This document shows, in pieces, positions 22,316 through 37,238 of a DNA stretch of 64,000 nt. A program made the translations under genes and the position numbers. The DNA is from Macrostomum lignano. Taxonomy: Eukaryota. Position 1 is the stretch's first letter. Every line of letters starts with the position of its first letter. The DNA lies in NCBI GenBank assembly GCA_002269645.1, contig NIVC01000616.1, positions 62,001-126,000 on the forward strand. Reading direction: 5' to 3'. A model generated the notes under the pieces. It saw only the letters and a list, made by a program, of their open reading frames with translations, made no database searches and was not told the DNA's origin.

Positions 22316-23228
22316 AGTAGAAGGCATGAGGGAGCTTCTGGGACAAAATTTTTCACATCCTCCATAATCCCATTAAATCCATCCATATTATCTCTGACAG
22401 AATCAGAAAAAAAGGGGGGTCGCACTCGCTCACAAAACGTCCTCCATAATCCCATCAAATCCATCCATATTATCCCCGACAGAATCATGAAAAAGTGGAG
22501 GGGTCGCACTTGCTCTGAAAACTTCGAACATAATCCCATTAAATCCATCCATATTATCCCCGACAGAATCAGACAGTGGACACCTGTTATGTTCACTGAC
22601 ACTGACATAATCCACTGACATCCACCCATAGCATCTTCGAAACAATCAGAAAAAAAATCTGCATTCTTCTCCCCACATTCAATCCGAAGCGGCGAAACCA
22701 GATCCCTAAGACTTTAAATTATCAGCGCAGGGTCCTTACCCTTTGAAAAAAAAATAAATTCTCAATAAAAATGTTTCCAGTCGTCTCTCCAGGTTCTTAT
22801 TATACTCAGCCTCATCCATTGTACAAATCCAAGTACCGATGCAAACTAGAATGCAGCGAGTACATGAGAAAATATTGGCCCAACGTTGATATCAATGATA
22901 TGATATCTAGCTCTCCAAAGACACTGGTTTCATAAGTATGGAGTAACCTACGTAAAAGATTACGACAGCTACTATAACTTTGCAGAAATCATTAAGCAAT
23001 TGCGTTAAAAACTGAAAGGCCAAAAGGCCAAAAGGCCAAAAGGCCAAAAGGCCAAAAAGGCCAAAAGGCCAAAAGGCCAAAAAGGCCAAAAGGCCAAAAG
23101 GCCAAAACCCTTTTCATTTTGGCCTTGCGCGAGGCCGAAATCCTTTGCATTCTGGCCTTCACTCGAGACGGAATTCTTCCCCGGCTGGGCTCAGTTAAAG
23201 TGAAAATCTCTCTCCCCCCACGCGCGCT
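22316..23228 (+). repeat. Left terminal inverted repeat of the Polinton
   Basis: Imperfect reverse complement of 36252-37238; ~80-bp subterminal repeats and a GGCCAAAA run. Confidence 0.9.
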
Positions 23229-23717
23229 CTCTACCCCCAGCTCTTTCAGCAGTCTTCCCAATTTCTTGTTAGGAGCACACAAAATAAACCCTGCTTCCAA
23301 GCCTCCGCCCTCTCTTTCCGCACACCCGCCCTCTCTCCCCAAACACCCACCTTCGCCTTGAACCCCCAAACCCAACTTTGCCTTACTAAAAATAACAGCT
23401 TTAACTAGCTTCCGAGCAATCGACTCACGAAATCCGCTTGAAGCCCCTATATTGTCTAGTCTCTTAAGCATTTCTTTGTCCCAGCGATTCTTCTCCTCAG
23501 GAAAATCTCTATACTTAACGTCGTGCCACATGCACACAGAGTCTAGCTCGTTCACAGGCTCATGCCCAGGATGTGGATTATTGTTTTTATCTAACTGTAT
23601 TTCAAGTGGATTCAAAGGCCCGCAATATTTATAGCCGGGAAGTGTCCAGCCTTTGTTTGGATGAGGAAGCTTTTCTATCAGTCCATGTGAATCTAACTTA
23701 CCACCAGAGCGTTGCAT
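22992..23717 (-). CDS. PLA2-like (parvovirus VP1u-type) virion protein; C-terminal half reads into the TIR
   Basis: LPGYKYCGP Ca-loop-like motif, LDSVCMWHDVKY His-Asp motif, KLGLG. Confidence 0.85.
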   Translation of the reverse strand: MQRSGGKLDSHGLIEKLPHPNKGWTLPGYKYCGPLNPLEIQLDKNNNPHPGHEPVNELDSVCMWHDVKYRDFPEEKNRWDKEMLKRLDNIGASSGFRESIARKLVKAVIFSKAKLGLGVQGEGGCLGREGGCAEREGGGLEAGFILCAPNKKLGRLLKELGVESARGGREIFTLTEPSRGRIPSRVKARMQRISASRKAKMKRVLAFWPFGLFGLLAFWPFWPFGLLAFWPFGLSVFNAIA

Positions 23718-23747
23718 TATTTTATTTTAAATTTTCTTTTTTAAAAA

Positions 23748-24782
23748 ATAACAGATCAGAAACTTAAAAAACTCTACTACAGCGACAAAGGATTCTTTGT
23801 AGGAAAAAATGCAGTCACCAAACTCGCAGAACTAAGTAAGGAACCAAAAGCTAAAGTAGAAAAATGGCTCTCTAAGCAGGCTGTCTTTCAAGTCTATTTC
23901 CCACCAGTAAAATTTGAAAGGCCCCATTTCAGTATTTATACACCTAATGAGGCGCACCAAGCAGATCTTCTGTTTCTCCCCAATTACTCGGGCTACAAGT
24001 ATGCTCTCACAGTAATAGACATTGCTTCCAGATATAAGGAAGCTCGCCCACTCAAGACGAAGAAGTCAGAGGTTGTTGCCAGCGCACTGCAAGATATTTA
24101 TAAAAACTCTCCGCTCACATACCCCCAAATCTTTATGACCGACCCGGGTAAGGAATTCATGGGTGCAGTGAAATCCCTTATGGAAAAGAAAAACACAGAG
24201 ATTCGCTATGGCAGAACAAACTTGCACAGAGACCAGGCTTTTGTGGAAAGATTCAATCTAACTCTAGCCAAGAGGCTATTCACTAAGCAGACAGCGCAAG
24301 AACTCAAACTGAGTGCGGGGCAGTACTATACCAAGTGGACAGAAAGACTCCCCACTGTTATAGAGCAACTGAACAATGAAGTCACACGCATGACTGGATT
24401 GAAACCGTCCCATGCAATTAAACAAGACACAGTCGAACTTAAGGCATCTCATAGAACAGACAACAAGCACAACACACACAACAAGCACAACACAAAACAC
24501 ACCTCGAACTACCCTAAGCTTCCAGGAGTTGAATCACCATACATACTGACAAACTCTGAGTTTCTACGCTTTTTATATCTACCTGGAGAGCTAGAGAAAG
24601 ACACCAAAAGAAGAGCTACAGATCCATACTTCAGCCTTGATGTACATAAAATAGACAGACATTTCACCTCCGACTCTGGAGAATATTACTTTTTATCTCA
24701 GGCCTTTAACCCTAAATCCCCCACACGGTCATTCACTAGAGCTGAACTCCTAGTGATACCAGCTGACACGGAAATTAATTAA
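23748..24782 (+). CDS. Retroviral-like (RVE) integrase; probable start mutated to or using ATA
   Basis: Frame open from aaaaaATA at 23748; HQADLL (D1), MTDPGKEF (D2), VERFN (E); RATDPYFS. Confidence 0.9.
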   Translation: MTDQKLKKLYYSDKGFFVGKNAVTKLAELSKEPKAKVEKWLSKQAVFQVYFPPVKFERPHFSIYTPNEAHQADLLFLPNYSGYKYALTVIDIASRYKEARPLKTKKSEVVASALQDIYKNSPLTYPQIFMTDPGKEFMGAVKSLMEKKNTEIRYGRTNLHRDQAFVERFNLTLAKRLFTKQTAQELKLSAGQYYTKWTERLPTVIEQLNNEVTRMTGLKPSHAIKQDTVELKASHRTDNKHNTHNKHNTKHTSNYPKLPGVESPYILTNSEFLRFLYLPGELEKDTKRRATDPYFSLDVHKIDRHFTSDSGEYYFLSQAFNPKSPTRSFTRAELLVIPADTEIN

Positions 24783-24798
24783 AATGTTAAAATAAAAA

Positions 24799-35211: not shown

Positions 35212-35234
35212 ATATTTTTTTGTGGGTGAAAAAA

Positions 35235-36098
35235 ATGGAAGCCATAGCCGAAAGACTAAACAACATTGTTTCTCACTCTAAGGAGAGCATTCCTATTACA
35301 ATAACCGGGCGAATTAATGACTCAAACGGGATGTTTGTTGAAAAATTAGAGCAGGCGATTCGCCTGGATCCAGGCGCTAATTACCATGTCTATATTAACG
35401 ACTTCACTGGTTGGTCAAACGTTCCCAATGTGATGGCAGCAAATAATAAGTTTTATTACAAATGGAAAGGTGCAGCAGCAGACCCTGTGGTATTCCATGT
35501 GAGCACGCAAAGTGTGGATACCTACAATAACTTTCTAGAAAATGTCTTTACTAAAAGAGGCCATTTTGAGACACCTGATGCGAGTAAGCCAGAGAAGAAA
35601 CTGTTCCCTGTCAAACTAACCTATGATCTCACTGTAATGAGAGTGGTCATGCAAGTTCACAAAGATGCGGAGGTTGAGTTTAAAGATGACACTTGGTATA
35701 GGGAACTGGGATTCGAGAAGAAAGTTTATAAGGCAGAATCCACGGCGCGGACCGCCACTCAAGCATCGGGGACCGTTAAAATGGCCCGGGAAAATGTAAG
35801 TGGTTTGTTCTTAGCACCCAATATTGCAGACATTGTAAAGGGTTTGAATATTCTAATCAGAAGCAATCTCAGTCTTGATTGGGTATTTAAGGGAAAGCGA
35901 ACGAATATTTTGTACAACATCTCTAACTCTGTTGCTGGAGGACAGATGCTGGTAGAGAAACCAAATCCAGTGAAAAGAGTAGTATTGAGTAATAAGGAGA
36001 TTCACGAGATTGTGTTACAGTTTGAGACTGAAGATGGGGTGGGTGTTGATTTCAACGGTGAAGAGTTTGTACTGACGTTGATCATTGAGAGAATGTGA
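35235..36098 (+). CDS. Minor capsid protein (penton)
   Basis: NNKFYY, IRSNL...NILY, terminal EDGVGVDFNGEEFVLTLII motif. Confidence 0.85.
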   Translation: MEAIAERLNNIVSHSKESIPITITGRINDSNGMFVEKLEQAIRLDPGANYHVYINDFTGWSNVPNVMAANNKFYYKWKGAAADPVVFHVSTQSVDTYNNFLENVFTKRGHFETPDASKPEKKLFPVKLTYDLTVMRVVMQVHKDAEVEFKDDTWYRELGFEKKVYKAESTARTATQASGTVKMARENVSGLFLAPNIADIVKGLNILIRSNLSLDWVFKGKRTNILYNISNSVAGGQMLVEKPNPVKRVVLSNKEIHEIVLQFETEDGVGVDFNGEEFVLTLIIERM

Positions 36099-36251
36099 GA
36101 AAATGCGTTCCCCTTTTAAGTATTCTTGCCGAGAATAGAGTGGTATGAAAAATGCGCGCATGTGTACTCAAAATCTCTTACCCCATTCTCACAGGTTGTG
36201 GGCGCGGGCGTCTCGTGTGTGGGGGAGAGGGGAGTGTATGTGTGTGGGTGC

Positions 36252-37238
36252 AGCGCGCGTGGGGGGGAGAGAGATTTTCACTTTAACTGAGCCCAGGCGA
36301 GGAAGAATTCCGTCTCGAGGGAAGGCCAGAATGCAAAGGATTTCGGCCTCGCGCAAGGCCAGAATGCAAATGATTTTGGCCTTTTGGCCTTTCGGTTTTT
36401 TAACGCAATTGCCTAATGATTTCTTCAAAGTTATAGTAGCTATCGTAATCTTTTACGTAGGTTACTCCATACTTATGAAACCAGTGAGGTTTAAGTGCTT
36501 GTTAATATTAGGGACATTGATATCAACACCGGGCCAATATTTTCTCATGTACTCGCTGCATTCTAGTTTGCATTGGTACTTGGATTTGTACAATGGATGA
36601 GGCTGAGTATAATAGGAACCTGAAGAGACAACTGGAAACATTTTTATTGAGAATTTAATTTTTTTTCAAAGGGTAAGGACCCTGCGCTGATGATTTAAAG
36701 TCTTAGGGATCTGGTAGCATGTTGTGGATTGAATGTGGGGAGAAGAATGCAGATTGTTTTCTGATTGTTTCGAAGATGCTATGGGTGGATGTCAGTGGAT
36801 TATGTAGGACACCTGTTATGCTCTGATTCTGTCGTGGAGGAAGGAGGATAGGTTAGGGGGATTATGGATGACATTTTGTGAGCGAGTAGGACACCTGTTA
36901 TGCTCTGATTCAGGGATAATATGGATGGATTTAATGGGATTATGTTTGAAGTTTTCGGAGCAAGTAGGACACCTGTTATGCTCTGATTCTGTCGGGGATA
37001 ATATGGATGGATTTAATGGGATTATGGAGGATGTTTTGTGAGCGAGTGCAACCCCCGCCCTTTTTTCTGATTCTGTCGCGGATAATATGGATGGATTTAA
37101 TGGGATTATGTTCGAAGTTTTTGGAGTAAGTGCGACCCCCCTTTTTTCTGATTCTGTTGGGGATAATATGGATGGATTTAATGGGATTATGGAGGACGTG
37201 AAAAATTTTGTCCCAGAAGCCCCCTCATGCATTCTACT
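36252..37238 (-). repeat. Right terminal inverted repeat of the Polinton
   Basis: Imperfect reverse complement of the left TIR; ends CTACT. Confidence 0.9.

Follow-up and report, generated by a model that had tools for sequence, protein, structure and literature searches.

What kind of element occupies positions 22316-37238 of a 64,000-nucleotide stretch of Macrostomum lignano DNA (contig NIVC01000616.1, positions 62,001 to 126,000; this whole stretch is hereafter called the window), and can it still multiply? An earlier note on the same DNA had proposed a complete Polinton- or adintovirus-like endogenous virus with exact ends and a full virion module. We consider it very probable (roughly 85%) that the segment is an integrated virus genome of the Polinton (Maverick/adintovirus) type, which entered a formerly empty site with a 6-bp duplication, is one of well over 100 close copies and carries broken genes for its integrase (INT) and DNA polymerase (PolB).

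The provirus spans 14,923 bp, begins with AGTAGA and ends with TCTACT, with CTTCTT on both sides. Each flank matches three places in the host genome assembly (764 Mb, the scope of all genome searches reported here), and at two of these (C201 and C3922) the left and right flanks are joined over one CTTCTT, i.e. they are empty paralogous sites. The single CTTCTT at both empty sites shows that the element was inserted, with duplication of 6 bp, at one member of a set of three paralogous sites (96-98% alike in the adjoining sequence); the claim of exact ends and a 6-bp target-site duplication (TSD) was therefore correct. The lengths of the terminal inverted repeats (TIRs), the duplication and the overall size lie within the ranges given for Polintons (TIR, 100-1500 bp; TSD, 5-8 bp and mostly 6 bp; size, 13-25 kb). 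Dating the insertion by TIR divergence was abandoned, as the TIRs differ by 7-17% while the capsid region of the copies differs by only 2-4%, and each of the two end variants occurs widely among the copies.

Between the ends we found twelve gene-sized frames, in the order and on the strands that had been listed, with a strand pattern alternating -, +, -, +. Identities were assigned by Pfam profile searches against family cut-offs and, for the major capsid protein (MCP), also by fold comparison. The features are as follows.

22310..22315, + strand: left copy of the TSD, CTTCTT, adjoining the left terminus
22316..23228: left TIR, about 0.9 kb, with sub-repeats of 77-84 nt and, towards its inner end, a tandem array of 8-nt units
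22992..23717, - strand: phospholipase A2 (PLA2) of the parvovirus VP1 type (PF08398, E 2.6e-14, above cut-off); the frame extends into the repeat region
23745..24782, + strand: rve integrase, a 345-codon frame (PF00665, E 1.3e-8, above cut-off)
24799..25245, + strand: stand-alone core protein resembling adenovirus pX (PF05829, E 4.4e-7, above cut-off)
25371..29285, + strand: PolB (pPolB), frame-broken, with exonuclease and polymerase motifs (PF02945, EndoVII, E 7e-4, below cut-off)
29359..29922, + strand: adenain-like maturation protease with His and Cys motifs (PF00770, E 2e-4, at cut-off); its C-terminus extends beyond that of most siblings
29765..30420, - strand: conserved protein split over two frames, a predicted helical hairpin with a hydrophobic turn (from the model of a sibling's open frame)
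30532..31275, - strand: coiled-coil-like protein with internal 84-nt repeats, variable among copies (sub-threshold Pfam matches only)
31292..32092, - strand: A32/FtsK-HerA packaging ATPase, 266 aa, open, with Walker A and B motifs (PF04665, E 5.6e-6, above cut-off)
32110..32299: tandem array of 21-nt units, between the ATPase gene and the core gene; two rearranged siblings have their breakpoints at or beside it
32277..32693, - strand: small putative core protein (no Pfam match)
32710..33894, - strand: Gln-rich protein of no known family, 394 aa, with divergent alleles among copies
33925..35211, + strand: double jelly-roll MCP as judged by fold matches, 428 aa, open (PF21738, E 1.8e-4, below cut-off)
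35235..36098, + strand: likely minor capsid (penton) candidate, 287 aa, open, assigned from position, size and look-alike viral clusters
36252..37238: right TIR, about 1.0 kb, likewise with sub-repeats of 77-84 nt
37239..37244, + strand: right copy of the TSD, CTTCTT, directly outside the right terminus

With PolB, an rve integrase, TIRs and TSD, MCP, ATPase and protease, the element has the tested hallmarks of Polintons/Mavericks (Polintoviricetes), and the Pfam matches of PLA2, rve, pX, adenain and A32 together with the MCP fold uphold the earlier view of a Polinton- or adintovirus-like provirus with a virion module. For PolB, 2,569 homologues were found at E<=1e-20, and a 1006-aa piece from a sibling copy matched PF03175 (E 2.9e-16); the window copy has what read as exonuclease and polymerase motifs. 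Upstream of the exonuclease, PolB carries a Cys motif and a His motif, which may be the catalytic residues of a vOTU (cf. PMC11161782), an N-terminal OTU-like domain being a trait of PolB in Eupolintoviridae (adintoviruses). The small core protein may resemble the adintovirus 'Cupiennin'.

The predicted model of the MCP matched the capsid proteins of PBCV-1 (E 9e-10) and mavirus (E 2e-9) in Foldseek, the range for PBCV-1, mavirus and Sputnik extending up to 5e-9, and that of faustovirus in VIA (Z 10.0, root-mean-square deviation (rmsd) 6.6, 299 residues aligned). The nine best whole-library VIA matches were all double jelly-roll capsid or scaffold proteins, and an adintovirus entry ranked third in a structure search of the viral library. 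A 77% identical relative, P0001, passes the PF21738 cut-off. On the predicted model, the window MCP is a double jelly-roll capsid protein, the fold on which the earlier note had staked its reading. Its nearest relatives, P0001-P0006 and P0008, are 69-77% identical and lie on Logan, ENA and JGI contigs of 0.9-3.7 kb; the next is 42% identical, and scores in the search of the 50% library drop sharply below this group. These proteins show that there are sister lineages outside the host genome. The 287-aa minor capsid candidate had no Pfam match and no PDB sequence match, and reached an ESM Atlas feature score of 0.98 to clusters of viral hypothetical proteins, most commonly labelled Nucleocytoviricota.

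The gene at 29765-30420 had been called gasderminX-like, an identity that received no support from profiles or from the listed fold matches, although absence from such lists does not exclude it. An open sibling frame of this gene contains a hydrophobic stretch and is modelled (pLDDT 55) as a long helical hairpin. In the fold comparison this model matched generic coiled coils, with a best Z of 9.9 (rmsd 1.4, 73 residues). Pfam gave neither an Adeno_PX nor a gasdermin match for this sibling frame, no gasdermin was among the listed fold matches, and its five relatives (42-49% identical) are unnamed. Adintovirus GasderminX typically has a C-terminal pX-like domain (PMC8502044; here and below, papers are cited for the parts available to us), and since none was matched here the label is left without support.

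The window copy belongs to a large family that has undergone a recent mass expansion, as emerged from the copy count that the earlier note had suggested as a check. A 29-nt terminal pattern had 296 exact matches in the genome (reversed control, 0), corresponding to at least about 150 elements, duplicated loci included, and to roughly 0.3% or more of the genome at about 15 kb per copy. A capsid search gave 664 candidates, and the 98 that were scored were all 97-100% identical, 94 of them without a stop. In the capsid region, 37 fetched copies, selected on the capsid and chosen for contig room, were 95.8-98.1% identical to the window. Among 21 pairs of sibling ends, the 6-bp duplication was perfect in 13 (two of which are probably one locus assembled twice), had one mismatch in two and was absent in six. 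The PolB search returned 1,099 candidates; of 119 scored, three lay in frames of at least 1,250 aa, so that helper copies with a full-length open polymerase can exist.

Protein constraint is evident between copies with open frames, pairwise pN/pS (non-synonymous to synonymous differences) being 0.09 for MCP (n=35), 0.21 for the minor capsid candidate (n=30), 0.09 for the ATPase (n=13) and 0.15 for the C-terminal part of PolB (n=11); INT and the PolB exonuclease were represented by too few sequences for this measure. Constraint on virion genes has been taken as a sign of spread by particles (PMC8097293), and constraint on both the virion and PolB genes of the present family points to virion-dependent spread.

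The window copy itself is damaged. Its integrase has lost its start, with no ATG before codon 131 (7 of 16 sibling open reading frame (ORF) records run 345 aa from a Met), PolB shows three frame changes against external homologues and the hairpin gene is broken, while the MCP, minor capsid candidate and ATPase frames are open. The lesions reported earlier in INT, PolB and the gasderminX-like gene were thus all recovered, but the list is longer: the protease is 187 aa long (commonest sibling length 133 aa, in 29 of 49 ORF records, overlapping stretches being counted twice), and PLA2, mostly 149-171 aa in sibling ORFs, runs into the repeat. Since integrase and polymerase genes are both broken, the window copy is likely unable to replicate by itself. 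Frame-disrupting indels relative to the window amount to about 1-4 per kb per copy in most genes. A family-wide programmed frameshift in PolB was rejected, the frame switches of 25 copies being spread over 20 bins (largest bins, 12 and 10).

That the capsid, penton candidate and ATPase frames are uninterrupted was correctly noted before, but the contrast this implied, of an intact virion module beside a broken replication module, did not hold up. Copies selected on the capsid had an open MCP in 35 of 37 cases and an open PolB in none of 22; among copies selected for an open stretch of PolB, the MCP was open in only 6 of the 15 that span it (20 fetched). The latter were taken in order from the best match, as 20 regions, leaving aside matches at contig ends, those already in hand or in the capsid list, one with full-length PolB and two beyond these 20. 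Selective sparing of the virion module was accordingly rejected; the pattern of open capsid and broken PolB is nothing special, given the selection bias and PolB being the longest target.

The life cycle we propose runs as follows. Protein-primed PolB would copy the linear genome from its inverted-repeat ends (PMC11161782; PMC8097293), the A32 ATPase would pack it into the double jelly-roll capsid, and the adenain-like protease would mature that capsid. PLA2 and the pX-like protein would likely aid entry and condense the DNA (PMC8502044 and general adenovirus biology), and the rve integrase would insert new copies. Damaged or truncated copies that keep their ends would likely be moved by proteins from other copies, and the window copy retains ends that such helpers could use.

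Several points weigh against this account. Neither particles nor free linear DNA nor transcripts were observed; no free viral contig was confirmed in near-identity scans, IMG/VR (58 pattern matches) or JGI metagenomes (149), and no holder of RNA data was among the listed sequence runs. When 29300-36100 was divided into 30 bins, the contigs of four runs covered 29-30 of them, but the RNA status of these runs was guessed and nothing on expression follows. The MCP model is of low confidence (pLDDT 53), and the last gene, of 287 aa, is a likely penton by position and look-alike viral clusters only. Duplicated loci in the assembly (C1652/C276 and C124/C289) could make our counts up to about twofold too high. 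The pN/pS sets are biased, as they consist of open-frame copies that ranked best in the protein searches, and the purifying constraint could have arisen in an exogenous ancestor population with many separate insertions. A self-synthesising transposon that moves inside the genome with PolB and integrase only, its capsid genes being passengers, would agree with the very high copy number, the many rearranged or nested copies, the missing virion evidence and the decay of capsid frames in copies not selected on them. Purely intragenomic transposition nevertheless fits poorly with the capsid and ATPase genes being as constrained between copies as PolB, unlike passengers, and we regard it as unlikely.

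The frequent 1-nt indels may partly be assembly error, in which case the window copy would be less damaged than it appears. Taken further, the copy might be intact or nearly so and its lesions errors of sequencing or assembly in a collapsed repeat family; such indels are indeed abundant and scattered across copies, many of which lie at contig ends. Most of them are not near homopolymers, however (36 of 205 in PolB; background fraction, 0.15), the lost integrase start and a missing left-end cassette (see below) are not of the indel-error type, and identity between the two TIRs is only 83-93% in the window copy but 86-100% in seven siblings, so that an intact copy seems quite improbable. Least probable of all, to the point of being barely tenable, is a parasite of a giant virus, akin to virophages or polinton-like viruses (PLVs), in place of an autonomous Polinton. 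Mavirus and Sputnik capsids are among the best structural matches, and the look-alike clusters of the minor capsid candidate carry viral, most often Nucleocytoviricota, labels; the structural matches are only about 10% identical, reflecting a common fold, and the element encodes both pPolB and an rve integrase, mostly lacking in PLVs (PMC11161782), with named PolB relatives from insects, a spider and a sea slug. An integrated Polinton virus genome with broken INT and PolB genes remains the reading we prefer.

The earlier description of the provirus as complete does not stand, as siblings carry DNA that is missing here. From PLA2 to the left end the window copy measures 1.18 kb; among 21 siblings, four have at most 1.32 kb, three about 1.7 kb and 11 no less than 2.45 kb, the remaining three being undetermined. 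The additional DNA carries an ORF belonging to one of at least seven types (about 155-260 aa; 24-51% alike in the parts that align), none of them in the window, lying at the left end in L016, L030, L032, L036, L038, L054, L060, L072 and L084 and at the right end in L085 and L089. No type has a Pfam match above cut-off; one has a sub-threshold helix-turn-helix (HTH) match, and a weak C-terminal HTH-like pattern is common to the alleles, which may therefore encode a DNA-binding regulator. Common ancestry of all alleles is weakly supported (hhalign E 0.005, probability 6.8%).

Other siblings are rearranged. An 11.3-kb palindrome (C1652:28604-39932, L090/L091, found again on C276, L092/L093) consists of two right arms, 99.85% alike. 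It carries the capsid genes in duplicate and a single ATPase region, lacks PolB and integrase, and has a 6-bp duplication of its own; the 21-nt array marks the end of one arm, and the palindrome was likely inserted with integrase supplied in trans. On C1098 (27500-48741, L116-L118) the right part of one copy is inverted beside a second full copy, and the 6-mers before two termini are reverse complements, at the 21-nt array, an arrangement that intramolecular insertion would leave. Two tandem copies on C2829 (75562-90999, L094/L095) are joined with the end of one inside the protease gene of the other. Comparison of the window (30361-30727 and 32710-33894) with L017, L050 and other siblings showed alternative alleles of the coiled-coil gene and the Gln-rich gene, of 76-88% DNA identity in a 95% backbone, which suggests recombination between sub-families. 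Three short remnants that still end in the termini were also found (L119, L120 and L121, on C124, C289 and C105, of 716, 640 and about 3,840 bp respectively), the last retaining most capsid genes. The two shortest have flanks and one duplication in common and were rejected as a family of miniature inverted-repeat transposable elements, being probably one deleted locus assembled twice. A separate 348-aa rve integrase, about 34% identical to that of the window, lies upstream of a truncated copy (L018:6407-7453) and possibly represents a second Polinton family.

These siblings allow a bolder picture, which we offer tentatively and consider rather doubtful: a Polinton lineage still expanding as a virus, with palindromic, capsid-only genomes resembling defective interfering ones and an exchangeable sub-terminal regulator cassette with at least seven strongly diverged alleles in a 95%-identical backbone. 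If true, it would provide a tractable animal system in which to catch Polinton particles and test helper-dependent spread, Maverick particles not having been observed as of 2021 (PMC8097293). The single window copy is ordinary and draws its interest from the family: with about 150 or more young copies, capsid genes under constraint, a few polymerase frames of full length and sequence runs from seven studies, it is a promising one in which to search for particles, free linear genomes and polymorphic insertions.

An Arfaptin-domain exon (18876-19130, - strand) lies some 3 kb left of the provirus, which may sit within an intron of that gene. The window also contains a DnaJ-domain ORF (2797-3795, + strand), two gag-pol regions resembling long terminal repeat retrotransposons with long open frames (1-2433 and 39306-45600; reverse transcriptase, RNase H and integrase motifs seen by eye), and long tandem arrays of short period that give spurious long frames (13955-15865, 17845-20029, 21598-21807, 45758-46459 and 57047-59140).

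How does the element compare with known systems? For its PolB, identity to database proteins reaches about 41% at most and lies at 31-40% for the 120 best listed, the named ones among them being from animals. These relatives, the 764-Mb eukaryotic genome and the neighbouring Arfaptin-domain exon would fit the animal host expected for Eupolintoviridae. In a quick tree of 49 sequences (11 named matches and a thinned subset of the 120) the window PolB forms a long branch (1.56) of unsure place. The lineage seems divergent and has no close named relative, and the earlier suggestion that it is undescribed is plausible from these sequences but unproven, RepBase Polintons and the adintovirus exemplars (from Mayetiola and Terrapene, with which PolB class and hexon cluster in Alphadintovirus or Betadintovirus) lying outside the comparison. 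No paper in the literature searched, a scope that excludes RepBase, describes this family, and DUF5901 likewise appears in none.

With Eupolintoviridae (formerly Adintoviridae; Polintoviricetes; Alphadintovirus and Betadintovirus; PMC8502044) the window element has in common a TIR-bounded midsize genome with PolB, rve integrase, adenain, FtsK-type ATPase, hexon, penton candidate, PLA2 and a pX-like protein. It differs in that no GasderminX was identified by profile or among the listed fold matches, in the low PolB identity given above, and in that PLA2 and pX are each encoded by a gene of their own, one on either side of the integrase and on opposite strands, whereas the adintoviruses of that paper have a fused PLA2X; PF08398 alone was matched in the first 122 aa of the window's PLA2 frame and in a 242-aa sibling ORF, PF05829 being found in a separate gene 1 kb away. 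Vertebrate Mavericks (PMC8097293) likewise have a 6-bp duplication, an AGT-type end motif (their (AGT)2 being close to AGTAGA), mostly defective copies and purifying selection on core genes; unlike the window, with its alternating strands, they have two gene modules, and their copy number (median 8, maximum 287) is reached or exceeded at its upper range by the at least roughly 150 elements of the present family, whose copies, unlike theirs, are only about 3% apart. Nematode Polintons (10.1101/2023.08.22.554363) are similar in size (13-25 kb), TIRs, TSD, an endonuclease domain in PolB and module exchange, but exchange PolB, whereas the present family exchanges a sub-terminal accessory ORF, and no fusogen was seen in the window. 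Mobile Polintons that lack PolB have been described from insects (bioRxiv 10.1101/2025.02.07.637071), and transcription of polintoviruses from a coral (PMC11131425), while PLVs mostly do without the pPolB and rve integrase (PMC11161782) that the window element encodes.

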